From assembly GCF_902652985.1 (NCBI RefSeq), contig NC_047019.1:14190097-14254096 (forward strand): a DNA stretch of 64,000 nt, read 5' to 3'. Origin of the DNA: Pecten maximus. Taxonomy: Eukaryota. Every line of letters starts with the position of its first letter. Positions within the stretch are counted from its first letter, which is position 1. The notes under the pieces are model-generated. The model ran no database searches. It was given only the letters and a program-made list of their open reading frames with translations, and was not told where the DNA came from. Position numbers and translations under genes: made by a program. Positions 17,421 through 64,000 of the stretch are shown here, piece after piece.

Positions 17421-17465
17421 GTTTGTATTAATTTTCATGTACCCCTCTTTGACATAGGTTTCATA

Positions 17466-17760: not shown

Positions 17761-17798
17761 AAGCAATGAAATGAAATGTAAATTGGTCCTTTTCACAG

Positions 17799-18431: not shown

Positions 18432-18459
18432 TGCATTAGAAATAACTGTTGTGTTACAG

Positions 18460-19882: not shown

Positions 19883-19918
19883 TTGTTTTTGTGAGACCTC
19901 ATGTACTTATATTAACAG

Positions 19919-20220: not shown

Positions 20221-20437
20221 GATGGATAATGTCCTGATAAAACAGCCAAGGTCAAAATGGAGGAAAGCTGTCATGGTAACAATGATACAGTAAATTGGGT
20301 TGGACCAGTCATGGTCACAAAGGCATAGAGATGAACCATTCAAAATCCTGTTTGAGTGGTCAAGGTCACAAAGGAGGATAGAGGTCAAGTGACTCAAAAT
20401 ACTGATTCCTGTTAAGAGTTTCAGGGAAGGGTAAAAA

Positions 20438-41799: not shown

Positions 41800-42170
41800 T
41801 AGCGTAGCGACACGACAGGCTGCAATATTTTTGGTATTACTCAGGATATATGTATAATTTACCTGTGTAGGTAGGTTTTAATGCATTAAAGATATATGTA
41901 TATTTTACCTGTGTAGGTAGTTTTTTATGCATTAAAGATATACATGTATGTCTATTTTACCTTTATGCATTAAGGATATACATGTACATGTATGTATATA
42001 AATTACCTATGTAGGTAGGTTTCCATGTATTCAGAATATGTATATTTTACCTGTGTATGTAGGTTTTCATGTATTCAGAATATGTATTTTTTACCTGTGA
42101 AGGTAGGTGTTTAGGTCACCTTAGGATATATATACCTGGTATATATATTTTACCTGTGTAGGTGTCTTAG
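41800..42170. repeat. Tandem repeat of about 60 bp, 6 copies, in the last intron of the small-protein gene
   Basis: The unit is 'atgcattaaagatatatgtatattttacctgtgtaggtaggtttt'. Confidence 0.85.
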
Positions 42171-42458: not shown

Positions 42459-43499
42459 GTCACAAATATTGAAGTTTCATTTACGGGTTTACTCTTTATT
42501 TATACCTAAGCAGATTTGCTTCATTTCACAGATTTCATGGCGAAGGTTCCACCCCTTCTGGTAGTTACTTAAGGTGTAAGCTATACCTTGTATGTTGTAC
42601 AAACCAACTGATTTGAAGGTAAAACACCTTTTGGTTGTTATGGCGTATATACTTGTACTGTATATAGAGAAAAAACTGCATGTTTGAAATAATTCCCATT
42701 TCTTTATTCACCTCTTACATATGTATGTACAAGTTGTGCTGCACATGTATGACTCCCATATATCAATATTTACTTCGAAGCTGAGTTCAGGTGACGTGAG
42801 GGGATGGACTTTATCTTTCAATCCAAGTCCTGCACTTCTGGTGATAGATGTTGACAGGGAGTTAACAAGCACCCTGAAACAGGAGTAGTCTGGTGACCTG
42901 CTCAAGGATTCCCTCGGTCTGCAGATAAACCTCTTCAGTCTAATGCTGCAACTCCAGTGACTTCAACATATTTCACTTACATGTCTTTCATTTTTAGCTT
43001 TCTCACAGGATCACATTTGTTCAATCAAACCTTTCATTAGGTCTAGTTTCACAAAAAGTTTTCTTACTATTAAAAATCTAGCACATGTTTTGCAGTTTGT
43101 CAGGTGTACATGAAAAAGAATGAAATATCTCCTTGGTATTATAGGACATATGGACAACCTAAAGACCAAAGGACAACTTATGGATGGCGTTGCTCCCCAT
43201 ATTCCTCTATAAATCAGATATTATGTATGAATGATTGATAAGATATACAACATTAAGTTATAGGTATAATTAAACAATAATAGATTATTTTTAGCTCTAT
43301 TCCATAACTCAATAAAATTAAGATCCACGCTCTCTCTAATAAATACTTCATATAAAAATATATGGCAGTATTTCTCCATTCCTCACAATCCAAAAGAATA
43401 TTAACTTCATTGATTCCTCTTAATCCATCGTTAAATCTTAGCTGGAGAATACATTCACTGATTCCTCCAAATCCATTGGTAAATCTGAGCTGGAGAATA

Positions 43500-43651
43500 C
43501 TAACTCTTTGATGTTTTCTTCTTCTTCTTTTGCTTTTTCTGTGGGCTATTTGAGGCCTTTTTCAGGGCATTGATGTCAGATTTGTCCTCAGGTGAGGGAC
43601 ATCCAAGAAAATACCTCCTCATTTCAACAGACACATCTTCTGCTGACAGAC
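43500..43651 (-). CDS. Large helical-protein gene, terminal exon (Lys-rich tail; stop TAG at 43500-43502)
   Basis: It has a strong acceptor ttgttgtctttctgtag|GT. The phase continues from the 44105 donor. The exon encodes GLSAEDVSVEMRRYFLGCPSPEDKSDINALKKASNSPQKKQKKKKKTSKS*. Confidence 0.55.
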
Positions 43652-44104
43652 CTACAGAAAGACAACAACACAAAATAATCTTAACTTCATTATAACATTA
43701 CTCGTACAATATCCATTTATACATTCTTAAATTCTGCATATTAGTTTTGGTGTAGACTTGAAACTAAGAAGTATTTGTGTTTTGAATACTTGCATCATGT
43801 TTTGTCTTATTTAAAAGCAAAATGAAAACACATATTCTACTTAGAGTGGAAATGACCTTGGGCAATAACCCTCAGACACCTTCATCACAATTCCCTGTGT
43901 TGTGGCACAATAAGATGTTATCAAAGATGATAACACAAATTCCATTGTCATCAGACAGACATTGGGCAAAACACATGGTCTTGGTGGTAGGGTTATACTA
44001 TCATGGATAATATATAGATTTTTGGATGGATACTGAAATACATTGCCATTAGCTTAATGAGAATTGTTCATGGAATATCATATTTTGTAATCATTTTACT
44101 GTAC

Positions 44105-44928
44105 CTGATGTGTTCAAATTGCAGAAGAACTCCCTCCAAACTGGCGACATCTCTCCTTCCTCATGACTGGCTATGTAACGCATCAGTTCATTCATCTTCA
44201 CCAACACCTCATTTAAACATGGTCTTACAGACTCTTTTGTACAAGAATCACAGTCTACATAAAGCTTGTCACTACTAGTGTTATACAGTACATTATAGAT
44301 CTGAAGGAGACACCTCACAAACTCCTTCTTTTCTGTGTCCCTGAAATGCTTGGCCAGAGATCCTGCACTAAAATGCTGGTGTATCCAAGACACAATGCCA
44401 ACCAATGTCTCGTTGCTCACATATGGAAGACTAGTTACTAAGAAGGAAATTGCTGCCATGGCAACAGTACATACGACTTGAACACCATCATTACCTGTGT
44501 CACATGACACAAGTAGACTTGGTTTCCAATGCAACAGCAAACCAACACTTAAAGGACAAATTTTTGTATTGGTGTCATTTTCTTCTGATCCTTTGTCTGT
44601 CTTTTCTGTCATGTCTTCATTTTCTTTTTGGATAATGGCCTTTCCATCCTTTGTCAGTTTCACCTCTTGTCTAGATGCCCCCTTGCTTCCTGATTGTTTT
44701 CCCTTTACATTCAAGAGTTTTAAGGCCCCAGTACAAGTTGTTTCTACGTTTTTGTCCTTGACGATTCTCGCCGAGTTGACTAGGATACCACAGACATCCT
44801 GTGTGGTTAGAGGTGTAACAGTCACCTGTCCCTTGTCCTTGAGAAGCACTACAGATTCCTTCAGGTGATTTAGCACAGACACCAGTGTCTCCAAACATTT
44901 CTCGTATACCGTGTGGATTGTTTCTTCC
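44105..44928 (-). CDS. Large gene exon. If the donor catcag|gtacag at 44104 is skipped, read-through ends at an in-frame TGA (44091-44093).
   Basis: The acceptor is ttttattttcccag|G. An 824-nt ORF encodes EETIHTVYEKCLETLVSVLNHLKES...CNLNTS. Confidence 0.7.
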
Positions 44929-45318
44929 CTGGGAAAATAAAACAGTTTTTATCAGCAAAGTCTGTTGGTAATATCAATATGAAAAAACATCTGTAACAAA
45001 TAGAAACATTTTTTGTAACATTATCTTTGATAATTTATATGCTTTTTACATAAGTGATATCCATCACATTTATGACAAAATAGTATACTTCCAATAAACT
45101 GATGCCAGTTTCACAAATATTCCTGACTTAAGGAAATTCCTGAATTAAAATTATATTTTTTTTTTCATAGGAAAACATTATAAGTTCAGAATTCAAGAAA
45201 AGCTCCTCAACTAAGATTTTCCCTTTAATCCCACAATGCAAAACTAGGGCCTGGTATTTTATGCAGTGAAACCCCACTAACTCCCGTTCTATAGATAACC
45301 CGGCTTCCCAAAACTTAC

Positions 45319-45510
45319 CCACAACACCTGACAAGCGACAGAAGACAAGTCAGCACCTCCCTGGATATGGCCAGTGGCAAGCATTTCGTTTCCTGCCCTT
45401 CTTCGTCTATTTCAGAGTTGTTTCCCCTGATGGATCGGTGTCGTACCATTGAAAACCACAGATTGTGGAGTATATCAGACAGTATTTCAAGCTTGCCAGC
45501 ACCAATGTTT
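45319..45510 (-). CDS. Large gene exon
   Basis: The acceptor is taatttcag|a and the donor is gtgg|gtaagt. The exon encodes NIGAGKLEILSDILHNLWFSMVRHRSIRGNNSEIDEEGQETKCLPLAISREVLTCLLSLVRCC. Confidence 0.7.
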
Positions 45511-45715
45511 CTGAAATTATATAACAAATATTCTTAAAATTATATGAGAGTTTTGAATACTTAGTATTTATAGTACAGTTGAACCATTTTTTGTTTTTAC
45601 ATTTTGATATCAGGAAATATTTTCATTTATATTCTTAACATCTTAATTCTTTAGTTTAGATTTAGAATTATTAACATTTTTCCAAAAGATTAAGTATAAT
45701 ACCTGGTTATGACAC

Positions 45716-45888
45716 CTGTTAACCAACTCAATATCCCATGTTGCTTCACTAGGTAAAAAGTCACTGTTCTTTGTCCAGAGGCTGACTTCAATATGTCCAA
45801 TACCTGCAGCTGTAACACCATAAATTGGGCAAAATGTTCTATAAATAGTCCTTACATACCAAGAGTTAAAATCATTGGGTTTATATGT
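45716..45888 (-). CDS. Large gene exon (boundaries tentative)
   Basis: The ORF is open in frame (TYKPNDFNSWYVRTIYRTFCPIYGVTAAGIGHIEVSLWTKNSDFLPSEATWDIELVN). A weak acceptor gttaag|ACA and the donor aacag|gtgtca were chosen because they keep phase with the neighbours. The stronger donor cag|gtatta at 45703 breaks phase. Confidence 0.35.
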
Positions 45889-46197
45889 CTTAACACTTTC
45901 CCTTTCTTTTTGCAAATATCAAAAATTAAAGTGTGTATTTCAAAATCTTTTAAGAATTGCTTTTTTTCAAATTTTGCGTTCGGTATACATATTAAAAGTT
46001 TCATTTTTCTTCCACATGTTTTTCTGTTATATCAAAATTCAGTTTTGATGAAATGGGATTTAAGTGACATATATCTGATGATTTGTAATAAAGCTAAATC
46101 AAATATATTTCAATTAGAAAATTTTAATCTTGAATCTTACATATTTCAGTTAATATAGTTAAGTATGAAATGTAAGTTTACAACCGTGTACACTGAC

Positions 46198-46341
46198 CTG
46201 AGAAGAGTTGTCACTAATACCAGAATCGTGGAAGCTGAGTAAGAGTTTGAAGACATAACGAGCCTCAAACAACTTGTAGTCCAGTGTCTCTCTCAAACCA
46301 TCTTTACATAAATCTAAAATCCATGATCTTTCCACCTTAAA
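46198..46341 (-). CDS. Large gene exon
   Basis: The acceptor is ctgttacag|T and the donor is tctcag|gtcagt. The exon is 144 nt and phase 0, and encodes FKVERSWILDLCKDGLRETLDYKLFEARYVFKLLLSFHDSGISDNSSQ. Confidence 0.7.
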
Positions 46342-46632
46342 CTGTAACAGAAACACCAGTCATGTGAACTTTAAAACAGTTCTGACAAACACTGATAATT
46401 TTTAAGTTTGTTTTACTAATACGACAAAAAGATCATATTGTATTGCATAATTATGAAGGTATATGTAAGTTATGAAATATGCAAATACATGTAATCTGTC
46501 CTGCTATGTACTTATTCATTTTTTCTGAAAGTATATCCTTGCACATTCTCCCTCAGAAATTTTTCTGGCCAAATACTTATTCACATGCATTATTCATGAG
46601 TCATTGAAAATATTCTGAGCTGGCTACAATAC

Positions 46633-46739
46633 CTCGAAGGCTGAACTGTTGAACAGTTTGTAGAACTCTGGCACTTTGGTGATGTCCATCGCAGGTTTCA
46701 ATAACAGGAAGTAGTTCATCACTTTGTACATGTGGTCAT
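46633..46739 (-). CDS. Large gene exon
   Basis: The acceptor is tctctgtacag|AT and the donor is ttcgag|gtattg. The exon encodes (D)DHMYKVMNYFLLLKPAMDITKVPEFYKLFNSSAFE. Confidence 0.65.
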
Positions 46740-47401
46740 CTGTACAGAGACAAAACCACAAACATTGTATAAACTCTCTATAAACTCTCAGAAGAAAGTG
46801 CCATTTATGGCATAATAATAAAGCCTATCAAGTTTGAAACAGATCACTTGAAAACTGAGAGAGAAGATCTGATAACAAGATTAATTTGCTGCAAGATTGG
46901 GCAGTACTATCTCTCTCAGAACATTTTGAATCTATCTGCAACTTGCCAAAAGTACAATTTGATGTTATGGTTACAATCTTAAGTTTTTTTAAAGAGATCA
47001 GCAGAAAACTGAGATAGGAGACCTTATAAGAAGAGTTTACAACAGATGGATGCACAATCTTACTTTTAGACCAGCATATAAAAACTTAGAACTTGACTGT
47101 GACTTGACAAGTATGAAATGACTTGTATAGCTGTTTTTACCTATGTACTATTAATATTTAATATAGATGACATTCAACTTGAAGACTCAGATCACCTCGT
47201 AGGCCTCAATTCTGACCTCAAACATTCAGATATCCCTTGCTGACTGATTACAAAAACTTTATTTACATATACTATAAAATCCATTCACTGATATTCAGAT
47301 GATGACTCAAAACAAAACACAGAGAAAATGTACCCAAATATCTAAAACGGTTTCCAGGAAAAGATGACAATTGCACTTTTAGTCTTTGAACTTTGACTTA
47401 C

Positions 47402-47674
47402 CATGCAGGAACATGAGCGACACCATCCTGGCAAGAAACACTGTGATGGTACAGGCAAGTTTGGTATTTGGGCGTGTCACACTGTCTCTCAGCAGGCTGA
47501 CCAGATACAACATCTGTTGTTGTTCTGGGAAACGTGCTCCCTCAAGATGGTGGAGATACTGGGCTAAAACATGGTAGGCAACACCCCTCACGCCAGCGTC
47601 ATGGCAACTCAGGGCGGCAATGGTGTATCCTAGACATAATGTCTCCGCAAACTTTCGGCAGTTTACATAAGAAT
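47402..47674 (-). CDS. Large gene exon
   Basis: The acceptor is tttgccacag|AT and the donor is gcatg|gtaagt. The exon encodes SYVNCRKFAETLCLGYTIAALSCHDAGVRGVAYHVLAQYLHHLEGARFPEQQQMLYLVSLLRDSVTRPNTKLACTITVFLARMVSLMFLH. Confidence 0.7.
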
Positions 47675-48141
47675 CTGTGGCAAATAAAAATTGTTAAACA
47701 ACTGTTTTTACATAGTTTCATTCTCAACACTTCAATGGGTACATTCATTTTTACACACTGCATCCCTACAATAAGTCACAACAAAATTGAAGGCAAGCAA
47801 CTACATGTAGTTAGATTCATTTGTATCGAGGAACTGTTGCATTTCTTCTGAGGATTTCCGAGGAGTCACAACCAAGTTCCAAATCAAATTACTGGTATGA
47901 TGATTTTTTTGTTGGTATAAACTAGTCTTTCTGTTTTGGTTTTATCCACAAGATGACGGTGACTGAACATTCACGGTTTTGTCATGACATATTCCAGGGG
48001 TGCGGAGTGAAAGTGAACAAAACTATTGGAGTATCGAGGATGCATGATCTAGTTTGAACTTAAGATTTTATAGATCAATTCAAATGTACCATAACAGTTA
48101 AGATGTATTATTATTGAATAAACTTCAGAATTTGTCCTCAC

Positions 48142-48238
48142 CTGGAGACAATAAACTGCTAAACAATGGCAGGATAAAGCAGGGGTCATAGAGGTCATCA
48201 TCAACTCCGAAGACTGACAAGTCCTGTAGCAAGCCCGG
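48142..48238 (-). CDS. Large gene exon
   Basis: The acceptor is ttctacttttctgttaaccag|C and the donor is tctccag|gtgagg. The exon encodes PGLLQDLSVFGVDDDLYDPCFILPLFSSLLSP. Confidence 0.6.
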
Positions 48239-48560
48239 CTGGTTAACAGAAAAGTAGAACAATAGCACTAGTAAGTATATAGCAGACAGAAGAGAGATGG
48301 CTACAAAACTACACAGTTTCATTGTCACTTCAATAGTTTTTTTGTGATTTGAAATATCTCTGAAAATGACACAAATTTGCAGATGTTTACCTGGAAATTA
48401 TAATTGTTAATTCAATATTATTTCCATGACGACCATAATAATGTTAAGATTTTCCAATGTTCTTATGACATATCTATGAATCATCAAGCCATCTTTGCCA
48501 AATCAGAGTGTTAAAGACAGATTACCTTACAGTATTTCAGGATTAGTCTATGATACCAAC

Positions 48561-48723
48561 CTGGAGTTTCCGTAGCAGTGGAAACTTGACGATTGACCTT
48601 TGTAGCCGGTCACGGTCTATATACTCCAACACTTGGTCTGTGGATGGCTGTTTCCATAGAGACGCCCCCATGGACTTCCTAATGGTGTGCTGCTCTGTGG
48701 CCTTTGACCCCCATAGGTATGGC
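48561..48723 (-). CDS. Large gene exon
   Basis: The acceptor is gtttcattgcccag|G and the donor is ctccag|gttggt. The exon encodes PYLWGSKATEQHTIRKSMGASLWKQPSTDQVLEYIDRDRLQRSIVKFPLLRKLQ. Confidence 0.65.
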
Positions 48724-49206
48724 CTGGGCAATGAAACAATTGTTTGTAGTGACAGAATTCCAAACCAGTGACATCAAGAATAGATTTTACATTTCATAAG
48801 TAATATTCTTTATGGGGACCTCACACCAGATGAAATTTTCATATTGTAAAAGTGAAACTGATAAGTTAAGGATGCATTCATTGAATTGTAAAATTAACAT
48901 GTAACTGGATAAGACATCCCTATATATAGATATGTACTTACCTGTACTCCTTCTTATTAACAGGTATCTGGACTAGACATCCCTATATATAGATATGTAC
49001 TTACCTGTACTCCTTCATGGAGACCTCATTGTTCTCATACAGGTGAAGAAGTCTCAGCAGTTTTTGGTCTGAAATTGAACACCAGAATGCAAAAGGTAAT
49101 GCAATCAGTAATATTGAGTAATTAATTGTCTTTTAATTAAAAAGAGAAATATGATAACCAGTATCAATGTATCATGACCTAGTTTACTGGTAGAAAACAA
49201 GCTACA

Positions 49207-52175
49207 ACCCTGTACATACCTGTTTGTGACAGGGTGGTACTGTAGGGCCCTGTACATACCTGTTTGTGACAGAGTAGCACTGTAGGGCCCTGTACATACC
49301 TGTTTGTGACAGAGTGGCACTATAGGGCCCTGTACATACCTGTTTGTGACAGGGTGGCACTGTAGGGCCCTGTACATACCTGTTTGTGACAGAGTGGCAC
49401 TGTAGGGCCCTGTACATACCTGTTTGTGACAGAGTGGCACTGTAGGGCTCTGTACATACCTGTTTGTGACAGAGTGGCACTATAGGGCCCTGTACATACC
49501 TGTTTGTGACAGGGTGGCACTGTAGGGCCCTGTACATACCTGTTTGTGACAGAGTGGCACTATAGGGCCCTGTACATACCTGTTTGTGACAGAGTGGCAC
49601 TATAGGGCCCTGTACATACCTGTTTGTGACAGAGTAGCACTGTAGGGCCCTGTACATACCTGTTTGTGACAGAGTGGCACTATAGGGCCCTGTACATACC
49701 TGTTTGTGACAGGGTGGCACTGTAGGGCCCTGTACATACCTGTTTGTGAAAGAGTGGCACTGTAGGGCCCTGTACATACCTGTTTGTGACAGAGTGGCAC
49801 TGTAGGGCCCTGTACATACCTGTTTGTGACAGAGTGGCACTATAGGGCCCTGTACATACCTGTTTGTGACAGGGTGGCACTGTAGGGCCCTGTACATACC
49901 TGTTTGTGACAGAGTGGCACTATAGGGCCCTGTACATACCTGTTTGTGACAGAGTGGCACTGTAGGGCCCTGTACATACCTGTTTGTGACAGGGTGGCAC
50001 TGTAGGGCCCTGTACATACCTGTTTGTGACAGAGTAGTACTGTAGGGCCCTGTACATACCTGTTTGTGACAGGGTGGCACTGTTGGGCCCTGTACATACC
50101 TGTTTGTGATAGAGTGGCACTGTAGGGCCCTGTACATACCTGTTTGTGACAGAGCAGTACTGTAGAGCCCTGTACATACCTGTTTGTAACAGGGTGGCAC
50201 TGTTGGGCCCTGTACATACCTGTTTGTGACAGGGTGGCACTGTAGGGCCCTGTACATACCTGTTTGTGACAGAGTAGTACTGTAGGGCCCTGTACATACC
50301 TGTTTGTGACAGGGTGGCACTGTAGGGCCCTGTACATACCCGTTTGTGACAGGGTGGCACTGTAGGGCCCTGTACATACCTGTTTGTGACAGAGTGGCAC
50401 TGTAGGTCCCTGTACATACCTGTTTGTGACAGAGTGGCACTGTAGGGCCCTGTACATACCTGTTTGTGACAGAGTGGCACTGTAGGGCCCTGTACATACC
50501 TGTTTGTGACAGAGTGGCACTATAGGGCCCTGTACATACCTGTTTGTGACAGGGTGGCACTGTTGGGCCCTGTACATACCTGTTTGTGACAGAGTGGCAC
50601 TGTAGGGCCCTGTACATACCTGTTTGTGACAGAGTAGTACTGTAGGGCCCTGTACATACCTGTTTGTGACAGGGTGGCACTGTAGGGCCATGTACATACC
50701 CGTTTGTGACAGGGTGGCACTGTAGGGCCCTGTACATACCTGTTTGTGACAGAGTGGTACTGTAGGGCCCTGTACATACCTGTTTGTGACAGGGTGGCAC
50801 TGTAGGGCCCTGTACATACCTGTTTGTGACAGGGTGGCACTGTAGGGCCCTGTACATACTTGTGTGTGACAGGGTGGCACTGTAAGGCCCTGTACATACC
50901 TGTTTGTGACAGGGTGGCACTGTAGGTCCCTGTACATACCTGTTTGTGACAGAGTGGTACTGTAGGGCCCTGTACATACCTGTGTGTGACAGGGTGGCAC
51001 TGTAGGTCCCTGTACATACCTGTTTGTGACAGAGTGGTACTGTAGGGCCCTGTACATACCTGTTTGTGACAGGGTGGTACTGTAGGGCCCTGTACATACT
51101 TGTGTGTGACAGGGTGGCACTGTAAGGCCCTGTACATACCTGTTTGTGACAGGGTGGCACTGTAGGTCCATGTACATACTTGTGTGTGACAGGGTGGTAC
51201 TGTAGGTCCCTGTACATACCTGTTTGTGACAGGGTGGCACTGTTGGTCCCTGTACATACCTGTTTGTGACAGGGTGGCACTGTAAGGCCCTGTACATACC
51301 TGTTTGTGACAGGGTGGCACTGTAGGTCCCTGTACATACCTGTTTGTGACAGGGTGGTACTGTAGGGCCCTGTACATACCTGTTTGTGACAGAGTGACAC
51401 TATAGGTCCCTGTACATACCTGTGTGTGACAGGGTGGCACTGTAGGTCCCTGTACATACCTGTTTGTGACAGAGTGGCACTGTAGGGCCCTGTACATACC
51501 TGTGTGTGACAGGGTGGCACTGTAGGTCCCTGTACATACCTGTTTGTGACAGGGTGGTACTGTAGGGCCCTGTACATACATGTTTGTGACAGAGTGGCAC
51601 TATAGGGCCCTGTACATACCTGTGTGTGACAGGGTGGCACTGTAGGTCCCTGTACATACCTGTTTGTGACAGAGTGGCACTGTAGGGCCCTGTACATACC
51701 TGTTTGTGACAGAGTGGCACTGTAGGGCCCTGTACATACCTGTTTGTGACAGAGTGGTACTGTAGGTCCCTGTACATACCTGTTTGTGACAGAGTGGCAC
51801 TGTAGGGCCCTGTACATACCTGTTTGTGACAGGGTGGCACTGTAGGCTCCTGTACATACCTGTTTGTGACAGAGTGGCACTGTTGGGCCCTGTACATACC
51901 TGTTTGTGACAGAGTGGCACTATTGGGCCCTGTACATACCTGTTTGTGACAGAGTGGCACTATAGGGCCCTGTACATACCTGTTTGTGACAGGGTGGCAC
52001 TGTAGGCTCCTGTACATACCTGTTTGTGACAGAGTGGCACTGTTGGGCCCTGTACATACCTGTTTGTGACAGAGTGGCACTTTTGGGCCCTGTACATACC
52101 TGTTTGTGACAGAGTGGCACTGTAGGGCCCTGTACATACCTGTTTGTGACAGGGTGGCACTGTAGGCTCCAAGGT
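49207..52175. repeat. 40-bp satellite A, about 74 monomers, inside an intron of the large gene. Each minus-strand monomer contains a donor-like aacag|gtatgt and an acceptor-like tgtacag.
   Basis: The plus-strand unit is 'ccctgtacatacctgtttgtgacagRgtggcactgtaggg'. The minus strand is open in all 3 frames, giving the 892-aa ORF artefact. Confidence 0.95.
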
Positions 52176-52248
52176 ATATGCCTATATGACTGGAGGTAGA
52201 GCAGTCTGGACGAAGCTCCACAAGTGTCATCAGGAGATCCACCAAACA
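52140..52248 (-). CDS. Large gene exon (tentative). Its last roughly 35 nt and its GTATGT donor are the first monomer of the 40-bp satellite.
   Basis: The acceptor is attattatagag|TG and the donor is aacag|gtatgt at 52139. The 109-nt exon is phase-compatible with both the upstream (52775) and downstream (48723) exons. It encodes VFGGSPDDTCGASSRLLYLQSYRHIPWSLQCHPVTN. Confidence 0.4.
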
Positions 52249-52774
52249 CTCTATAATAATATATCAACTTATATAGTCATCATCTTGTTTGTTTGAAGTA
52301 TACACATTAAACAATAGAAAACTTACATCATCTCATCAGGACACATCTTCTTTAACAGATAAAATTACAACTGAAAGTCATTTTTAACTAATACCGCTAT
52401 TATTTGTGATCATGGTAGCTACATGTACATGACATCTATATTTTTTTGAAAATAGCACCATTGTATTTGCTATCCCTCAAAACCATTATATAAAGATTGA
52501 CAGCTTAATCTGACAATATCTCAATATTAGTCAACCAGTATTCCATTATGTTTCTATAGTTACGGTTATTGAAATACTTGATGCTTTTCTCTCTAGTATA
52601 ACACTTAACAAACAATAACTTGCTCTGTGCCACAAATGTGACAATTTTTTTTAAATATTTTGTTTGTTTGTTTATCTATAATTTATCTACCATGATATAA
52701 TCTAGTTTATCAAAAAGTTGATGCTTTCATGAAATACACAACACCAAATAAAGCCATATTTCTTATTAACTCAC

Positions 52775-53015
52775 CTTTGACCTCAGATCCTGCCTCGTCA
52801 AGTATGATCGACAAAAACATTGAGTGACTGAGTACCATGTCAAAGATAGTGTTGGGAGTCAGATCAAGTGTCTCTCCACTTGAGTACACCATCTTCACCA
52901 GCGTGTTGAGGATCTTATGAGTACTGGCATTGGAGTACTGGGATCGTAAACATGCTTTCACAAAGGACGAGAAATCTTTATGTACCTCAGATGGCTTCAA
53001 TTGTTGGATGACATC
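52775..53015 (-). CDS. Large gene exon
   Basis: The acceptor is tttgtatacag|G and the donor is caaag|gtgagt. The exon encodes DVIQQLKPSEVHKDFSSFVKACLRSQYSNASTHKILNTLVKMVYSSGETLDLTPNTIFDMVLSHSMFLSIILDEAGSEVK. Confidence 0.7.
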
Positions 53016-53830
53016 CTGTATACAAACATGGATAATATCATTAATTACTAACATCTTATAATTATATACAAACATGGATAATATCATTAATTACTAATAT
53101 CTTATAATTATATACAAACATGGATAATATCATTAATTACCAACATCTTATAATTATGTACAAACAAGGATAATATCATTAATTACTAACATCTTATAAT
53201 TATGTACAAACATGGATAATATCATTAATTACTAACATCTTATAATTATGTACAAACATGGATAATATCATTAATTACTAACATCTTATAATTATGTACA
53301 AACATGGATAATATCATTAATTACTAATATCTTATAATTATGTACAAACATGGATAATATCATTAATTACTAACATCTTATAATTATGTACAAACATGGA
53401 TAATATCATTAATTACTGTCCTGTATACAAACATGGATAATATCATTAATTACTAACATCTTATAATTATGTACAAACATGGATAATATCATTAATTACT
53501 GTCCTGTATACAAACATGGATAATATCATTAATTACTAATATCTTATAATTATATACAAACATGGATAATATCATTAATTACTAATATCATATAATTATG
53601 TACAAACATGGATAATATCATTAATTACTAATATCTTATAATTATGTACAAACATGGATAATATCATTAATTACTAATATCTTATAATTATATACAAACA
53701 TGGATAATATCATTAATTACTAACATCTTATAATTATGTACAAACATGGATAATATCATTAATTACTAATATCTTATAATTATGTACAAACATGGATAAT
53801 ATCATTAATTACTAATATCATATAATTATG
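53016..53830. repeat. 47-bp minisatellite, about 17 copies, starting exactly at the 3' splice site of exon 52775-53015. Units include acceptor-like 'tgtatacag' variants.
   Basis: The unit is 'acaaacatggataatatcattaattactaacatcttataattatRta'. Copies at about 53400 and 53500 carry 'cctgtatacaaacatgg', whose minus strand reads ccatgtttgtatacag|g. Confidence 0.9.
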
Positions 53831-54394
53831 AATGGCCATTTTGTCATGATACCTGGGCCCTGAAGAGTAGTTCAATGTTTCTTTATTTGGACTCTTGACA
53901 ACCGACAGAAACCTTCAATTGTGAAATACACTCAAAAATAGAAATGTTGTAAAGTGCTGTTTTCAATGAGGTAATGAATTTTTCCAAGAACAAGCTCTGG
54001 TATAAGCCCACACATGTCCATCGCTTTTTAAGCAAAAACTTCTAACATCAACTATTTTATTGTCCTTCAGCATTTGGTCAAATGTTATGTGTTGAAAACA
54101 GATAACATATTTACATTTGTGCCACATTTCCCTATTGAAACAATGCCAAGAGGCAGTTGCTACCATACATCTATAACACCCAGTGGGTCATGTGACATTT
54201 AAAAAAGGCAGTAATTCATTTGTTGGTTCAGTTTTCAAAACTGATAAAAATGGTTAGGCGATTTAAGTATTGAACAGTTGTTTTAATGTTGTTATATGGT
54301 AGTAAGATGTATGTTGGACATGTACAAATGTCATGGGAACCAGTTGTTCATCATTAAACATTTACATGATGATTTCTTGCTTTGTATGTTGCCA

Positions 54395-54470
54395 GGCCAA
54401 ACAAGATTATATTGAACTCACCTGACTGGCCAGGCCAAACAAGATTATATTGAACTCACCTGACTGGTTT
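54395..54470. repeat. 38-bp tandem duplication spanning the donor site of exon 54460-54716
   Basis: 'ggccaaacaagattatattgaactcacctgactgg' occurs twice. The second copy places a duplicate 'cag|gtgagt' donor 38 nt into the intron. Confidence 0.85.
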
Positions 54471-54716
54471 TAGACAGAAGACTTTGAAGGTATTCCACTA
54501 AATCCCCATCTAATTTCTCCTTTTTCTGAAGAGTGTACATCAAGCATCTCCGACACACAGAGTAAACCTGGGCCTCAGTAATGACAGGCTCAGTGCTGAC
54601 CCCTGGTGTAGATGAGGAAAGGTAACGAAGCACTTGGATGTGATCCCTTTTCACAGTTTTTTTGGCCTTAATACTACTAGTAATGCTCCGATAAATGTCT
54701 TTCTGTTTGTCAATGT
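54460..54716 (-). CDS. Large gene exon
   Basis: The acceptor is ctttttttccag|AC and the donor is agtcag|gtgagt. The exon encodes IDKQKDIYRSITSSIKAKKTVKRDHIQVLRYLSSSTPGVSTEPVITEAQVYSVCRRCLMYTLQKKEKLDGDLVEYLQSLLSKTSQ. Confidence 0.7.
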
Positions 54717-55315
54717 CTGGAAAAAAAGAATGAATAAAATGAATTTCTCCTAACTAAACAAATAATGAACAAAATGAAAAAGAAAAATTTATGATGTATT
54801 ATTTATATACCATATACAATGTATTTGTAGTTTCAAGGTTATGTTTTTCATGTGTCACTGTCTTAATTGTATCTGTTTGTCTCTCTCTATTTCTTAATTA
54901 AATAATTTTGAAGAATATTTTCATTCAAAGGTTAAGATTAAGAGAAGTTAGGAACATCTGACTCCACTACATCTATTGGGCATCCCTTGGGAAATGCTTT
55001 GCCTAGTACATGTATACGCATCCTTGGGCAAATACACACAGATGAATGTTAATGCTATCTAAAACGTTGGCTAATGGCAAGAGTGACACTGCTAGATACC
55101 GTGATGACTGTATTAGTGTCCATTCTTCAAATAAACAAGTTCAAAACACTCATTTCCTTAAATTAATATTCATTTCTTGTGTTTCAATATAGATTTTATC
55201 TCTATCCAAAAATGATTTTACTAGCTAAATGTTCTTGTAGGTAGATTTTGGCACTTCAGTAAATGAACATGAGAAAAAAAATTCTTTAAAGATATTTTAC
55301 TCGTTGCTGACTTAC

Positions 55316-55459
55316 CTATAACTTTGAGCTTACACAGCAGGGTAGCCAGTTCACATAGATCTCCTATAAAATCAGAGTGCTGTTCAGATGTTCCCATCAA
55401 AGTTCCCACACAGTCCGCATAATCCCTGTAGATTTTGTGAACAGCCTCTGTGGCTTCCG
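55316..55459 (-). CDS. Large gene exon
   Basis: The acceptor is cattgtttccag|CG and the donor is gttatag|gtaagt. The exon encodes EATEAVHKIYRDYADCVGTLMGTSEQHSDFIGDLCELATLLCKLKVI. Confidence 0.7.
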
Positions 55460-56513
55460 CTGGAAACAATGAGATAAACCAACAATTACCTTTATAAGTT
55501 CTTGGTATCAGGCCAACAGATACATGTACATGTACCATAACATACACGAGACATGCTCTAGTACAGATTATTTATATGGTGTGTATCAATTTCATGTTAT
55601 CAAAACCTTACTGATGTAATGGAGTTTTCTGAGAAGAATGAATATTTCCGAAATCTATAAGAAATCAGAAAATATATACACTGTGCATATATAATCAAAT
55701 AAGAGACGAATAATAGAAGTGACATTTCATGTAATTACTCGATCAGCAGTCCTCAGTTGGCTTTTCAGTAGTTCCTATGCAACAGATACGATGTAATGCT
55801 TACAGCTACAGCATCTTGGAGGGGCAGACAATAGTAGTCTTTATAGACAGGTGACTGAGGTTCATATACAAACCTGTCTACAAAGGCTTCTCATTGGAGG
55901 AACAGACAAAAGTGGTCTTTATAGACAGGTGACTGAGGTTCATATACAAACCTGTCTACAAAGGCTTCTCATTGGAGGAGCAGACAATAGTGGTCTTTAT
56001 AGACAGGTGATTGAGGTTCATATATAGTCAAACCTGTATATAAAGGCTGCTCAGTGGATCAGAAAATAATTGCTTTTATGGAAAGGTGGCCTTTATGTAA
56101 AGGATCATATACAATGAATTTTGTTACATTGGGACCCGAAACATGCGACCTTTAAAGATTGGCCCTAAATGACTCAAACTGTTGATGGGCTGTAAAACAA
56201 TACAATACCTTACAGTCCTTTATTGTTTATGGACAGATTTTTCCAATATACAGGTGAATTGGGTTTATTATAAACAGGTCACCTTTATGGGCAGGTTTTT
56301 GCAATATATGTGATCTTTATCAACAGGTATTTGTTATATATAGGTGGTCTCAACCACAGATTTAAAAAAAACCAGTTGGTCTTTATAGACAAGTTTTTTG
56401 TTATACAGGTGGTCTTTATAGACAGGTTTTTTTTGTAATACAAGTGGTCTTTATAGACAGGTTTTTTGTAATACAGGTGGTCTCTAGGGCAGGTTCTATA
56501 TGGTTTTGCCTAC

Positions 56514-57486
56514 CTTTCCTGTCCGTTACACACTGCAGGTAGGTGTTCAGTAACGGGATGTTCACAAACTTCCGGTCACTGTCGATATTTGTTGCCATAA
56601 TCCATTCCTCAAGATTTGACCTGGCCACGGAGTTATGTTTGACCACAGTCATTGCTATCTTATGCTTTACTATGGAGGAGCTATTCAGGAGATGCCACAT
56701 GGTTTCCTTGGTAACCGCAACAGAGAAATGAGGAAATGTTTGCAGAAGATTTTGACAATTATTGTCAATAACATTTGAGTCGATACTGCACATCATCTCT
56801 AACAACACCTCAAAATCCTTAATATGTAGAAACACGAAGCTGTGGTGATGAACAGACAGGTTACTATGGATCTCTTCTAAAAGGTTCATCAGAAAACTCC
56901 CCAAGGGAGATAACTCTGATGAGGAATTGACAAGTAAAGTCTTCGGTAGGTATAGGACAGTGTGAAGGAGTGAAAACTGTGCCTCTATGTCTAAGAAATT
57001 TGTAAACAACCCTAAGTTGTTCTGGATCAGTCCGACCAATTTTTGGTAGGTTGGACTTGGTTCATTTCTGTTTTTGATGGAGTCCATGAATTTTTTTATT
57101 TTATCCACATATCTTTTCAGAACCAGTGACAACTGACTGAGGTCCTGCTTTTCAATGGATAAGAAGATCTGGCTCATTTGCGATGTGACAAGAAATTGAA
57201 GACAGCTGACTGTCGGTGGTGGGTATGCAGGATCCTCCAGTTTATCAGTTGGGTCATACAGGAACCATCTGAGCAACACAGGATGTGTTAAAACCATTTG
57301 GAGCATTTCAAACAGAGGCTCTGACCTTGCGTTCTGACCAAGGTCAGAGAGCAGATCAAAGTTACTATCATTTAACTTATCATTACATTCTTCTGAAACA
57401 GTGGCTTGTCTTGTCATACATAATTGTATCAATGCATGAAGTGTTTCTAAAAGGACTTCCATAGCAACACTGGATTTTGATCCTGT
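56514..57486 (-). CDS. Large gene exon (973 nt), alpha-helical (ARM/HEAT-like)
   Basis: The acceptor is tttgtatttttcag|A and the donor is aggaaag|gtaggc. A 324-codon ORF encodes TGSKSSVAMEVLLETLHALIQLC...LQCVTDRK. Confidence 0.75.
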
Positions 57487-57645
57487 CTGAAAAATACAAA
57501 CAATGATATTCAACACCAAACTATCAATTGTTAAAATCCAGTTATGCTACACTAAATATTCAGAAATTCAGGAGATAATGACTATGATAAGTGTCATTTA
57601 TTTGTGTTCAGGATTTTCGAAGTAGTCATAAATTAACCCACATAC

Positions 57646-57855
57646 CTGGCCACATGTTTTCTCCAGAGTAACGAAATACAGCAGCAGTTGCTTGGCAACA
57701 AGAAGCATGTCCTCCACATCCAAATCACCAAGACTCTTTGTTAGTTCCTTGACCTTCACCTCTTCTGCCTTAGCACACATCTTGATGAAGGCACGCATCA
57801 GTGGTCTACTGGATAGTATCTGTATCCCTTCCTTGGGCATTTTCATCCTCTTAAA
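57646..57855 (-). CDS. Large gene exon. It contains an in-frame 'aggATGaaaATGccc' that could alternatively be the start codon.
   Basis: The donor is ggccag|gtatgt. A weak acceptor gtgttaaag|TTT keeps phase 0 with the upstream exon. The exon encodes FKRMKMPKEGIQILSSRPLMRAFIKMCAKAEEVKVKELTKSLGDLDVEDMLLVAKQLLLYFVTLEKTCGQ. Confidence 0.5.
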
Positions 57856-58232
57856 CTTTAACACAATATATACCACTTTTACAATATTTTTACATAAATT
57901 TAATTTGTTTTTTGATTTTTTCCATCATCAACCCCTTACAATCTCTTACAACTTTTGCAGCATTGATATATCTATAATAAATATAAAGATATAAATTTTA
58001 CTTATTTTACAATTGCAAAACCATTTTCTACCAACTTAAATATATTATTGATTCTAAACTGAAGCTTCAAGGGGTCTTAGAGTGGGCGGAAACCGGAGGA
58101 CCCACAGCAAACCCATGAGGTCAGACAGGTCCCTATCATAATGCTCACATATGATTTTTCTATCAGAATTAAAAATCATTTTCAACATGTTTCATATAGC
58201 TAAACCTACTAAATATTCTAATCAAAATGTTT

Positions 58233-58330
58233 CCATCATTTCGTTCTGTAATCATTAGATACCTTTTCTGATGGTAACCATGACAATACGTTCTGTAATC
58301 ATTAGATACCTTTTCTGATGGTAACCATGA
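58233..58330. repeat. 47-bp tandem duplication spanning the donor site of exon 58310-58461
   Basis: 'gttctgtaatcattagataccttttctgatggtaaccatgacaataY' occurs twice. This duplicates the last 33 nt of the exon plus the gtatct donor about 47 nt into the intron. Confidence 0.85.
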
Positions 58331-58461
58331 CAATATGTACTTGATGACCCCACTCTCTAGCTGATCTCCATGGCAAGCGTTCAGCATACACACCAGAGGG
58401 AGAGGCTGTATTTGGGAGTGGAAAAGGTCAAGGACAATTCCAGACATGTAGTTTTTCACAC
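58310..58461 (-). CDS. Large gene exon
   Basis: The acceptor is ctactcaacag|GT and the donor is gaaaag|gtatct. The exon encodes VKNYMSGIVLDLFHSQIQPLPLVCMLNACHGDQLESGVIKYILSWLPSEK. Confidence 0.6.
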
Positions 58462-59130
58462 CTGTTGAGTAGATAAGTATATATGTATAGGGTCACAATA
58501 AGTATCTAATTTTATGTATAGTGTCACAATAAGTATATGTATAGGATTCCACATAATAACAGGTAATAGGTCAAACATTGAAATTAAATTGGATTATCGT
58601 AAATGCACACCTATGAGAACAAAGGAAAATTCTGCATGTATTATGAATGATAAGCCAGTATTTGCGATTGAAATTATAAAAGAGAATGAGCTTAACTGAT
58701 CTAAGCATTACATGTATACAAAATCTATTCCCCCCCTGCCCTGCTAAGAATAGTAACAGAAACCTTGACCTCAAAACCCTGTAACTAGAACATATTATGG
58801 TGCTTTATCATTGTGTAAAGATTGATTAAAATCCCTCAAGGAATGATGCCGTAAGAGCACTGACAAATTTAGGTATTACATACATAATACGTACCAGACA
58901 GAGATAAACCTACATACATAATATGTACCAGACAGACAGAGAGAAAACCTACATACATAATACGTACCAGACAGAGATAAACCTACATACATAATATGTA
59001 CCAGACAGACAGAGAGAAAACCTATCGCCCGCCCTTCCCCCCTGTTTCACTGTTAGAGAGCTATGAAGTGTCCAGTTAAACTGACAACAGAGGCAATAAC
59101 CAGTATTGGGAGTTTAAGACCTTTACTTAC

Positions 59131-59198
59131 TCGGAGGCATATTTTCTGTCTTGGTCAGATGTTCCAAAGCAATCACCACCATTGGGCTGTAGGGAAAC
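59131..59198 (-). CDS. Large gene candidate upstream exon (tentative). The gene may continue 5' beyond the satellite or the window end.
   Basis: The acceptor is ctctcattgtag|G and the donor is ccga|gtaagt. The exon encodes (F)PYSPMVVIALEHLTKTENMPP, and its phase matches exon 58310-58461. Confidence 0.3.
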
Positions 59199-59280: not shown

Positions 59281-62200
59281 AGTGACTGTATCAACACAAT
59301 TGTCATGTAAGTACTATGACTGTATCCATACATCCACACAATTGTCATGTAAGTACTATGACTGTATCCATACATCCACACAATTGTCATGTAAGTACTA
59401 TGACTGTATCCATACATCCACACAATTGTCATGTTAGTACTATGACTGAATCCATACATCCACACAATTGTCATGTAAGTACTATGACTGTATCCATACA
59501 TCCACACAATTGTCATGTAAGTACTATGACTGTATCCATACATCCACACAATTGTCATGTTAGTACTATGACTGTATCCATACATCCACACAATTGTCAT
59601 GTTAGTACTATGACTGTATCCATACATCCACACAATTGTCATGTTAGTACTATGACTGAATCCATACATCCACACAATTGTCATGTAAGTACTATGACTG
59701 TATCCATACATCCACACAATTGTCATGTAAGTACTATGACTGTATCCATACATCCACACAATTGTCATGTAAGTACTACGACTGTATCCATACATCCACA
59801 CAATTGCCATGTAAGTACTATGACTGTATCCATACATCCACACAATTGTCATGTTAGTACTATGACTGTATCCATACATCCACACAATTGTCATGTTAGT
59901 ACTATGACTGAATCCATACATCCACACAATTGTCATGTAAGTACTACGACTGTATCCATACATCCACACAATTGTCATGTTAGTACTATGACTGTATCCA
60001 TACATCCACACAATTGTCTTGTACGTACTATGACTGTATCCATACATCCACACAATTGTCATGTAAGTACTACGACTGTATCCATACATCCACACAATTG
60101 TCATGTAAGTACTATGACTGTATCCATACATCCACACAATTGTCATGTTAGTACTATGACTGAATCCATACATCCACACAATTGTCATGTAAGTACTACG
60201 ACTGAATCCATACATCCATACAATTGTCATGTAAGTACTATGACTGTATCCATACATCCACACAATTGCCATGTAAGTACTATGACTGTATCCATACATC
60301 CACACAATTGTCATGTAAGTACTATGACTGTATCCATACATCCACACAATTGTCATGTAAGTACTATGACTGTATCCATACATCCACACAATTGTCATGT
60401 AAGTACTATGACTGAATCCATACATCCATACAATTGTCATGTAAGTACTACGACTGAATCCATACATCCACACAATTGTCATGTAAGTACTATGACTGTA
60501 TCCATACATCCACACAATTGTCATGTTAGTACTATGACTGAATCCATACATCCACACAATTGTCATGTAAGTACTACGACTGAATCCATACATCCATACA
60601 ATTGTCATGTAAGTACTATGACTGTATCCATACATCCACACAATTGCCATGTAAGTACTATGACTGTATCCATACATCCACACAATTGTCATGTACGTAC
60701 TATGACTGTATCCATACATCCACACAATTGTCATGTAAGTACTATGATTGTATCCATACATCCACACAATTGTCATGTAAGTACTATGACTGTATCCATA
60801 CATCCACACAATTGTCATGTAAGTACTATGACTGTATCCATACATCCACACAATTGTCATGTTAGTACTATGACTGTATCCATACATCCACACAATTGCC
60901 ATGTAAGTACTATGACTGTATCCATACATCCACACAATTGTCATGTAAGTACTATGACTGAATCCATACATCCACACAATTGTCATGTAAGTACTATGAT
61001 TGTATCCATACATCCACACAATTGTCATGTAAGTACTACGACTGTATCCATACATCCACACAATTGTCATGTAAGTACTACGACTGTATCCATACATCCA
61101 CACAATTGTCATGTTAGTACTATGACTGAATCCATACATCCACACAATTGTCATGTAAGTACTATGACTGAATCCATACATCCACACAATTGTCATGTTA
61201 GTACTACAACTGTATCCATACATCCACACAATTGTCATGTTAGTACTATGACTGTATCCATACATCCACACAATTGTCATGTTAGTACTATGACTGAATC
61301 CATACATCCACACAATTGTCATGTAAGTACTACAACTGTATCCATACATCCACACAATTGTCATGTAAGTACTATGACTGAATCCATACATCCACACAAT
61401 TGTCATGTTAGTACTATGACTGAATCCATACATCCACACAATTGTCATGTTAGTACTATGACTGAATCCATACATCCACACAATTGTCATGTTAGTACTA
61501 TGACTGAATCCATACATCCACACAATTGTCATGTAAGTACTATGACTGAATCCATACATCCACACAATTGTCATGTTAGTACTATGACTGAATCCATACA
61601 TCCACACAATTGTCATGTTAGTACTATGACTGAATCCATACATCCACACAATTGTCATGTAAGTACTATGACTGAATCCATACATCCACACAATTGTCAT
61701 GTTAGTACTACAACTGTATCCATACATCCACACAATTGTCATGTACGTACTATGACTGAATCCATACATCCACACAATTGTCATGTTAGTACTATGACTG
61801 TATCCATACATCCACACAATTGTCATGTAAGTACTATGACTGAATCCATACATCCACACAATTGTCATGTTAGTACTACGACTGAATCCATACATCCACA
61901 CAATTGTCATGTAAGTACTATGACTGTATCAATACATCCACACAATTGTCATGTTAGTACTATGACTGAATCCATACATCCACACAATTGTCATGTTAGT
62001 ACTATGACTGAATCCATACATCCACACAATTGCCATGTAAGTACTATGACTGAATCCATACATCCACACAATTGTCATGTTAGTACTATGACTGAATCCA
62101 TACATCCACACAATTGTCATGTAAGTACTATGACTGAATCCATACATCCACACAATTGTCATGTAAGTACTATGACTGAATCCATACATCCACACAATTG

Positions 62201-64000
62201 TCTTGTAAGTACTATGACTGAATCCATACATCCACACAATTGCCATGTAAGTACTATGACTGAATCCATACATCCACACAATTGTCATGTAAGTACTATG
62301 ACTGTATCCATACATCCACACAATTGTCATGTAAGTACTATGACTGAATCCATACATCCACACAATTGTCATGTTAGTACTACAACTGTATCCATACATC
62401 CACACAATTGTCATGTTAGTACTATGACTGTATCCATACATCCACACAATTGTCATGTTAGTACTATGACTGAATCCATACATCCACACAATTGTCATGT
62501 TAGTACTATGACTGAATCCATACATCCACACAATTGCCATGTAAGTACTATGACTGTATCCATACATCCATACAATTGTCATGTAAGTACTATGACTGTA
62601 TCCATACATCCACACAATTGTCATGTAAGTACTATGACTGTATCCATACATCCACACAATTGTCATGTAAGTACTATGATTGTATCCATACATCCACACA
62701 ATTGTCATGTAAGTACTATGATTGTATCCATACATCCATACAATTGTCATGTTAGTACTATGATTGTAACCATACATCCATACAATTGTCATGTTAGTAC
62801 TATGACTGAATCCATACATCCATACAATTGTCATGTAAGTACTATGACTGTATCCATACATCCACACAATTGTCATGTAAGTACTATGACTGTATCCATA
62901 CATCCACACAATTGTCATGTAAGTACTATGATTGTATCCATACATCCACACAATTGTCATGTAAGTACTACGACTGTATCCATACATCCACACAATTGCC
63001 ATGTAAGTACTATGACTGAATCCATACATCCACACAATTGTCATGTTAGTACTATGACTGAATCCATACATCCACACAATTGTCATGTTAGTACTATGAC
63101 TGAATCCATACATCCACACAATTGCCATGTAAGTACTATGACTGTATCCATACATCCACACAATTGCCATGTACGTACTATGACTGTATCCATACATCCA
63201 CACAATTGTCATGTTAGTACTATGACTGAATCCATACATCCACACAATTGTCATGTTAGTACTATGACTGAATCCATACATCCACACAATTGCCATGTAA
63301 GTACTATGACTGTATCCATACATCCACACAATTGCCATGTAAGTACTATGACTGTATCCATACATCCACACAATTGTCATGTAAGTACTATGACTGTATC
63401 CATACATCCATACAATTGTCATGTAAGTACTATGACTGTATCCATACATCCACACAATTGTCATGTTAGTACTATGACTGTATCCATACATCCACACAAT
63501 TGTCTTGTAAGTACTATGACTGAATCCATACATCCACACAATTGCCATGTAAGTACTATGACTGTATCTATACATCCATACAATTGTCATGTAAGTACTA
63601 TGACTGTATCCATACATCCATACAATTGCCATGTAAGTACTATGACTGTATCTATACATCCATACAATTGTCATGTAAGTACTATGACTGTATCCATACA
63701 TCCATACAATTGTCATGTAAGTACTATGACTGTATCCATACATCCACACAATTGTCATGTAAGTACTATGACTGTATCCATACATCCATACAATTGCCAT
63801 GTAAGTACTATGACTGTATCTATACATCCATACAATTGTCATGTAAGTACTATGACTGTATCCATACATCCACACAATTGTCATGTAAGTACTATGACTG
63901 TATCCATACATCCATACAATTGCCATGTAAGTACTATGACTGTATCCATACATCCACACAATTGTCATGTAAGTACTATGACTGTATCCATACATCCATA
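59281..64000. repeat. 40-bp satellite B, about 118 monomers, running to the window edge
   Basis: The unit is 'atccatacatccacacaattgtcatgtaagtactatgactgt'. It resembles satellite A in the acatacc/acatcca...ttgtgaca/ttgtca blocks. The 877- and 688-aa ORFs are artefacts. Confidence 0.95.

Follow-up and report, generated by a model that had tools for sequence, protein, structure and literature searches.

Tandem repeats reiterate the donor splice sites of four exons in the URB1 gene of the scallop Pecten maximus

Introduction

Why would one gene carry tandem repeats across several of its 5′ splice sites? The question is raised by the minus strand of a 64,000-nucleotide stretch of the Pecten maximus genome (contig NC_047019.1; hereafter the window), in which a preliminary description had pointed to direct duplications of 38 and 47 bp at the donors of two exons, had counted four junction-centered duplications in a single gene, and had suggested replication slippage at splice junctions or selection for redundant donors as their source. 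Here we establish the identity and exon ends of the gene, describe the four repeats and the coding consequence of using their downstream donors, and weigh the possible explanations for their recurrence.

Results

Identity and exon model of the gene

The minus strand from ~59200 to 43500 holds a gene with a NopRA1 domain (Pfam PF16201; match at 47379-47591, E = 1.4e-11, above the gathering score). Its exon chain was first assembled from open frames, splice consensus and phase, and then assessed with a codon-usage score, which is above 0 for every exon piece, compared with a mean of -0.24 ± 0.16 bits/codon in stop-free intronic stretches. An exhaustive search of protein representatives with the largest exon returned a 2261-aa protein with 100% identity over 324 residues, namely XP_033740037.1, the nucleolar pre-ribosomal-associated protein 1-like of Pecten maximus. 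Once spliced and translated, the 18-exon model (Table 1) is exactly identical to the C-terminal 1425 aa of this record. At the repeat-bearing junctions the record reads ...ILSWLPSEK/FKRMKMP... (47-bp site), ...SLLSKTSQ/DVIQQLKP... (38-bp site), ...GAYSATLSQT/DQKLL... (40-bp site) and ...SMKEYR/PYLWG... (63-bp site). Because the spliced model translates exactly to the annotated protein, the exon ends at 58310, 54460, 52140 and 49005 are confirmed, and the 38- and 47-bp duplications do span true donors, as had been proposed.

Orthologs agree with these boundaries. Scallop URB1 is 35% identical to the Haliotis protein and 31% identical to caecilian URB1 over ~2050-2090 aligned residues, and the Haliotis asinina and caecilian sequences align without gaps over three of the four repeat-bearing junctions; the remaining junction, in the poorly conserved E1/E2 region, shows a single-residue gap. 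GAYSATLSQT/DQKLL is conserved in both Haliotis and caecilian URB1, and the SMKEYR/PYLWG junction is likewise collinear with orthologs. With the exact protein match and the collinearity of orthologs over the junctions, the purely intronic reading that the preliminary description had named as its refutation fails.

Two alternative exon models were considered and rejected. A donor at 58393 (CTG/GTGTGT), which has the same phase and a higher score, would make the 47-bp duplication purely intronic. It was ruled out by the codon-usage score, which is +0.13 bits/codon for the segment 58393-58310 against the intronic -0.24 ± 0.16 and backs coding as far as 58310, and also by the annotated protein and the Haliotis alignment (KYILSWLPSEK versus QYITSWIHSSK). 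A purely intronic 40-bp array was ruled out by XP_033740037.1, which reveals the exon 52250-52140.

XP_033740037.1 matches the upstream donor copy at all four repeat sites. This is not evidence of usage, because an annotation pipeline picks the frame-preserving donor anyway. Among the other searches, a word-indexed protein search with a 662-aa spliced query found no homologue, the same kind of search with the NopRA1 region found three short metagenomic fragments only, and a sequence search of the PDB gave no match to URB1.

Table 1. Positions in the window of the URB1 exon model, the donor-spanning repeats and other features. A slash marks an exon-intron junction or the equivalent point of a donor-like motif.
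Feature	Position	Strand	Period and copies (identity)	Remarks
3′ 18 exons of Pecten maximus URB1	43500-59198	-		Residues 837-2261 and stop codon
URB1 exons 1-6 of the model	59198-59131, 58461-58310, 57855-57646, 57486-56514, 55459-55316, 54716-54460	-		
URB1 exons 7-12 of the model	53015-52775, 52250-52140, 49068-49005, 48723-48561, 48238-48142, 47674-47402	-		
URB1 exons 13-18 of the model	46739-46633, 46341-46198, 45809-45703, 45510-45319, 44928-44105, 43651-43500	-		
47-bp tandem duplication	58242-58335	-	47 bp, 2.00 copies (100%)	Spans donor of exon 58461-58310; unit 26 nt exon + 21 nt intron; last exon base 58310; authentic AAG/GTATCT, GT at 58309-58308; pseudo-donor GT at 58262-58261
38-bp tandem duplication	54391-54467	-	38 bp, 2.03 copies (100%)	Spans donor of exon 54716-54460; unit 7-8 nt exon + 30-31 nt intron; last exon base 54460; authentic CAG/GTGAGT, GT at 54459-54458; pseudo-donor GT at 54421-54420
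40-bp minisatellite	49208-52166	-	40 bp, 74 copies (93% matches)	First unit spans donor of exon 52250-52140; unit 1 is last 27 nt of exon (coding ...YSATLSQT) + first 13 nt of intron; authentic CAG/GTATGT, GT at 52139-52138
63-bp tandem duplication	48893-49016	-	63 bp, 2 copies (93%)	Spans donor of exon 49068-49005; unit 12 nt exon + 51 nt intron; authentic perfect CAG/GTAAGT, GT at 49004-49003; pseudo-donor GT at 48941-48940
42-bp satellite	59290-63998		42 bp, 112 copies	Fills intron upstream of exon 59198-59131; runs off window end; strong donor-like motifs
73-bp duplication	58877-59024		73 bp, 2 copies (perfect)	34-bp subunits; 106 nt into intron after exon 59198-59131; sense-strand CTG/GTACGT donor-like sites in the subunits
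Imperfect direct repeat	58482-58536		24 nt (96%), 31-nt spacing	~20 nt upstream of acceptor of exon 58461-58310
46-bp minisatellite	53021-53830		46 bp, 17.6 copies	Ends 5 nt before acceptor AG of exon 53015-52775
Imperfect duplication	43406-43500		48 bp, 2 copies (87%)	Begins exactly at last base of URB1 stop codon (TAG, 43502-43500)
Non-junction arrays in or around URB1	41845-42113, 55816-56058			Strong donor-like motifs
Second gene	9299-20300	+		533-aa exon 15830-17431; weak TPR matches
Arrays of the second gene	9808-9878, 17532-17776, 18328-18432			Start ~69-110 nt downstream of a donor
Core-repeat loci	14463-15115, 19266-19747, 35298-35715, 37120-38431, 40956-41577		~156-161 bp core	
18-bp satellite	1-6304		18 bp, 355 copies	Runs off window start
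45-bp satellite	7502-8615		45 bp, 25 copies	

Four donor-spanning repeats

The direct duplications of 38 and 47 bp were recovered both by Tandem Repeats Finder and by an exhaustive exact-match scan, within a few bases of the positions given for them previously (54395-54470 and 58233-58330). Read along the minus strand, the units are CAGTCAG/GTGAGTTCAATATAATCTTGTTTGGCCTGGC (38 bp) and TATTGTCATGGTTACCATCAGAAAAG/GTATCTAATGATTACAGAACG (47 bp). Perfect adjacent repeats of these lengths cannot have arisen by chance, and apart from the large arrays the exact-match scan detects no more than four perfect two-copy duplications with a period >18 in the 64 kb, namely the two described here, 18328-18432 and 58877-59024. 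Microhomology at the duplication ends amounts to 1 nt for the 38-bp and 0 nt for the 47-bp case, which leaves classical slippage between short direct repeats, as a form of the slippage suggested earlier, unsupported in the two young duplications. RNA folding at the same two sites revealed no significant structure (z = -0.8 and -1.0). Since an imperfect direct repeat lies just ahead of the acceptor of exon 58461-58310 (Table 1) and the 47-bp duplication lies across its donor, this exon has a small duplication on both sides.

The other two junction-centered repeats are the 63-bp duplication and the 40-bp minisatellite, and the count of four in one gene thus holds. Folding of the minus strand at 48885-49030 predicts a modest hairpin (z = -2.6), not strong enough to build on, in which the second 63-bp donor (ACAGGUA) pairs with UACCUGU in the first copy's tail; the equivalent tail of the second copy is mutated to UACAUGU. 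Within the 40-bp array, unit 1 has the most frequent sequence of all units (16 occurrences), the 9-mer CAGGTATGT is kept in 68 of the 74 units, and 20 of the 40 columns are invariant, with donor positions +1 to +9 among them in all 74 units. The array is mostly stop-free in the three sense frames, with open reading frames of up to 892 aa.

The four repeat units have nothing in common beyond the donor consensus, and they differ in age, two of the repeats being 100% identical, one 93% identical and one grown to 74 units. Because only the donor consensus is shared and the ages differ, the four repeats represent independent events. The donors they repeat are not a special class among the 17 of the gene segment: by position-weight score they reach 5.6, 10.1, 12.8 and 13.1, within an overall range of 4.6-13.1. 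The weakest is AAG/GTATCT (5.6), and CAG/GTGAGT, CAG/GTATGT and CAG/GTAAGT are strong, at 10-13.

Repeats that span an acceptor were not found in the URB1 gene segment. The 46-bp minisatellite ends 5 nt before the acceptor AG of exon 53015-52775, so that its last unit must supply the polypyrimidine and branch-site sequences of this acceptor; the start of the exon is excluded from the unit. At the 3′ end of the gene, the imperfect 48-bp duplication sits at the boundary between coding sequence and 3′ UTR.

Coding consequence of the downstream donors

Use of the downstream donor would be frameshifting at the 38- and 47-bp sites, as had been stated, both lengths being 2 mod 3. In the 38-bp case an in-frame TAA follows after 4 codons, in the 47-bp case a stop is reached 20 codons past the junction, and the downstream donor of the 63-bp duplication leads to an immediate in-frame TAA. 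Because all three two-copy pseudo-donors give premature stops, they offer no productive back-up for the real site, and this counts against the proposed selection for redundant donors, which therefore finds no support here. Within the 40-bp array, donors 2 and 3 shift the frame, and every third donor would add an in-frame block of 40 residues; donors 4 and 7 give uninterrupted in-frame blocks of 40 and 80 residues (GMYRALQCHSVTNRYVQGP.VPLCHKQVCTGP.SATLSQT). Beyond the four repeats, the introns run on for 139-1375 nt to their own acceptors.

Recurrence in one gene

Tandem repetition is abundant in the 64-kb window, where 32 arrays were tabulated and about one third of the bases lie within arrays. 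The chance of recurrence was assessed with a placement test, in which the 8 arrays of the gene segment were collapsed to single units, leaving 11,551 bp, of which 7,272 bp are intronic, with 17 donors, and each collapsed unit was then positioned at random. Placement anywhere in the gene gives an expectation of 0.60 donor-spanning arrays, and placement restricted to tolerated positions (intronic or donor-spanning) an expectation of 0.95. Four of the 8 arrays actually span a donor, with P(≥4) = 0.0017 and 0.009 respectively. Four such cases in one gene are unusual, as had been noted before, and for URB1 taken alone pure chance is an uncomfortable explanation. The enrichment is nominal, however, coming from one gene chosen after the fact for its pattern, in a genome that has tens of thousands of genes and is rich in tandem repeats.

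Other repeats and features of the window

The five loci with core repeats of ~156-161 bp are, in four cases, flanked by a (CGTC/ACGG)n microsatellite, and they share the modular organization described in bivalves for Helentron-associated tandem-repeat MITEs of the pearl/DTC84 type (PMC3879986). Two large satellites occupy parts of the first 9 kb (Table 1). An Rfam scan of the whole 64-kb window gave no matches.

Discussion

Tolerated duplication at exon ends as the probable explanation

The probable explanation of the four repeats is tolerated, near-neutral growth of tandem duplications and of a minisatellite at exon ends, with the upstream donor doing the work. The repeats would have begun as ordinary germline tandem duplications, one of which later expanded into the minisatellite, and each includes the last 7-27 nt of a URB1 exon and the first 13-51 nt of the next intron. 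A head-to-tail copy of this kind keeps the original exon-donor junction at the upstream copy and places the extra copy inside the intron. Because the original junction stays intact, a normal mRNA can still be made via the first donor, and the downstream donor copies would be pseudo-sites that are spliced out with the intron. Donor-spanning events would then be tolerated just as purely intronic duplications are. Exon-internal duplications shift the frame, acceptor-spanning ones would introduce extra out-of-frame sequence downstream of the first AG that can be used, and both would be selected against; the restriction to donor-side cases would follow, because exonic and acceptor-side duplications would be purged.

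Several parts of this explanation can be graded separately. By analogy with human F7, LMNB2 and PDGF, the upstream donor would be the one predominantly used. The donor repeats of URB1 are presumably near-neutral, and the two perfect duplications would be recent and probably polymorphic. Their recurrence in this gene most likely reflects the very high tandem-repeat density of the gene and genome, together with chance and the post-hoc choice of gene. Silence of the pseudo-sites should nevertheless not be assumed, because three of the four repeated donors are strong and their spacings are 38-63 nt, for which the engineered substrates compared below gave a different result.

Donor sites as possible mutational hot spots

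A first alternative, which we regard as unlikely, is that tandem duplications and minisatellites of this genome arise preferentially at donor sites, which would be mutational hot spots, so that the recurrence is mechanistic and not due to chance. Possible causes would be DNA damage linked to transcription or splicing close to 5′ splice sites bound by U1, or a CAGGTRAGT-like motif prone to breakage or recombination. We know of no established mechanism that seeds tandem repeats at donor sites. The placement test favors a hot spot (4 of 8 arrays; P = 0.0017-0.009), as does the spread of ages among the events, which suggests a persistent tendency. Against this, the test concerns a single gene picked post hoc, and in a window of which about a third is tandem repeat a junction-specific process is inseparable from chance combined with that choice. 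Proximity to donors also extends past the spanning cases: two further URB1 arrays start just 30 and 106 nt into an intron, and three small arrays in the neighboring plus-strand gene start close downstream of donors (Table 1). Many introns are short, however, so most intronic positions are near a donor anyway, and none of the three arrays in the neighboring gene spans one.

The sequence of the repeated sites can be read in the same two ways. The 7 non-junction arrays of the URB1 region, among them 41845-42113, 55816-56058, 58877-59024 and 59290-63998, are slightly richer in donor-like motifs than random windows (Fisher P = 0.027), an excess that may be due to chance, and the 21 arrays elsewhere in the window (1-41500) show none (P = 0.80). 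The breakpoints are not anchored to the junction, as the exonic and intronic parts of the unit vary from one repeat to the next, and the repeated donors range from weak to perfect and thus share no common motif. That 5′ splice sites may seed tandem duplications and minisatellites in the scallop germline, through a mutational process associated with the junction, is accordingly a proposal that we hold to be distinctly unlikely. If it is true, donor-spanning repeats should be over-represented genome-wide, and URB1 would be a visible hot spot instead of a coincidence. Enrichment across the genome would point to a hitherto unrecognized connection of splice sites with the origin of tandem repeats; a lack of enrichment would make URB1 simply a neat case of structural variation that is tolerated where exons end.

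Possible functional use of the reiterated donors

It is very unlikely that the reiterated donors are used and functional. Such use could take the form of NMD-targeted transcripts that tune URB1 dosage, of in-frame 40-residue blocks, or of extra U1 snRNP recruited to the intron. The rival sites are identical, mostly strong and 38-63 nt away, and in vitro work predicts substantial use of intron-proximal sites under these circumstances (PMC3413131). Precedents in human genes point in both directions: as outlined in the F7 report, two pseudo-sites are used constitutively in IFI6 and CBS and the pseudo-sites of F7, LMNB2 and PDGF are silent (PMC1557585), and one unit of the ABCA7 VNTR is sometimes retained (PMC5954066). 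In the 40-bp array, the uninterrupted in-frame insertions from donors 4 and 7 would be compatible with a function, but the other three sites yield premature stops only, the 38- and 47-bp duplications seem too recent for an adaptation, and the annotated record has no isoform label. The invariance of donor columns +1 to +9, which might be taken as a sign of constraint, is expected from homogenization of the array, and it extends beyond the donor itself to half of the columns.

Possible artifacts

That the 38- and 47-bp duplications are assembly or polishing artifacts, or belong to a rare defective haplotype caught by the assembly, is most improbable: their copies show 100% identity and end bluntly (microhomology of 0-1 nt), no other contig on record encodes XP_033740037.1 or three of the open reading frames in the window, and a metagenome scan found no relatives, but the 40- and 63-bp repeats differ between copies by substitutions and are certainly real, ordinary intron sequence holds two more perfect duplications of comparable length (18328-18432 and 58877-59024), which fit a common class of natural variant, and the URB1 frame is otherwise intact across its 1425 codons.

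Comparison with known systems

The architecture described here is already known in human genes, and it is the occurrence of four such repeats in one gene that is unusual. The closest counterpart is the 37-bp VNTR in IVS7 of human F7, in which 4 bp from the end of exon 7 and 33 bp from the start of the intron make up the first unit (Borensztajn et al. 2006, PMC1557585). As in URB1, identical pseudo-sites recur behind the authentic donor at a constant distance (~37 nt), the next site shifts the frame, and the unit size and layout are those of the scallop repeats of 38, 40, 47 and 63 bp. The F7 pseudo-sites are functional when tested and normally unused, the most upstream site being chosen (PMC1557585). 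F7 differs in having one array with 5-9 polymorphic units, whereas URB1 has four with copy numbers of 2, 2, 2 and 74, and in the weakness of its site (TGG/GTGGGT), three of the four scallop donors being strong and close to consensus. Upstream-only use was shown experimentally for F7 and is presumed for the scallop gene.

In human ABCA7, a 25-bp VNTR in intron 18 includes the donor of exon 18 (De Roeck et al. 2018, PMC5954066), and like the scallop repeats it adjoins an exon and contains its donor. Occasional use of the second-unit donor keeps one unit in the transcript, with a frameshift and premature stop as the result (PMC5954066). The ABCA7 repeat differs in that its unit begins precisely with the GT and contains no exonic sequence, and in being polymorphic in length, which correlates with splicing and expression. 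The F7 report further outlines IFI6 (6-16), CBS intron 13, LMNB2 and PDGF as cases of a minisatellite with an exon-intron boundary inside its first monomer, with the authentic site only used in LMNB2 and PDGF and the authentic site plus two pseudo-sites in IFI6 and CBS (PMC1557585). Unlike scallop URB1, none of these four genes is described in that outline as having several such arrays.

Two other systems resemble the URB1 repeats less closely. Short-distance tandem splice sites comprise NAGNAG acceptors and donors 3-12 nt apart, usually by a multiple of 3, so that the protein varies subtly; the URB1 spacings are 38, 40, 47 and 63 nt, of which the first three shift the frame and the last inserts an immediate in-frame TAA. 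The model in which introns are gained when part of an exon containing AGGT is duplicated in tandem (e.g. PMC4974935) is similar in that an intragenic tandem duplication makes extra splice signals. In that model, however, the duplicated sequence belongs to an exon, and the GT of one copy and the AG of the other delimit a new intron, whereas the URB1 units hold a pre-existing exon-intron boundary, the intron is already present, and only donors are duplicated, with no new intron.

A further comparison is with engineered substrates, in which duplicated strong 5′ splice sites of globin and adenovirus compete and the intron-proximal site wins (Hodson et al. 2012, PMC3413131). The shift toward the proximal site starts beyond ~30 nt and reaches ~100% at a separation of at least 45 nt (PMC3413131). 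As in URB1, two identical strong donors compete in cis at set spacings; the substrates are artificial and were assayed in vitro or in HeLa, and they predict downstream use, opposite to the F7 result and to the scallop annotation. Published results therefore conflict, as the upstream site always wins in F7 and the downstream site wins among engineered strong sites at least 45 nt apart. Where a repeat reiterates a donor, the spliceosome faces a choice among identical sites, which makes such repeats natural experiments in that choice, and one essential scallop gene supplies four natural substrates (38, 40, 47 and 63 nt), mostly of consensus strength and one present in 74 copies, with spacings that straddle the 30-45 nt transition of the engineered ones. 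For pipelines of gene annotation and variant-effect prediction the locus is a caution that a duplicated donor is not necessarily damaging, and for splicing itself it constitutes a natural four-substrate test of upstream scanning versus intron proximity among identical tandem donors.
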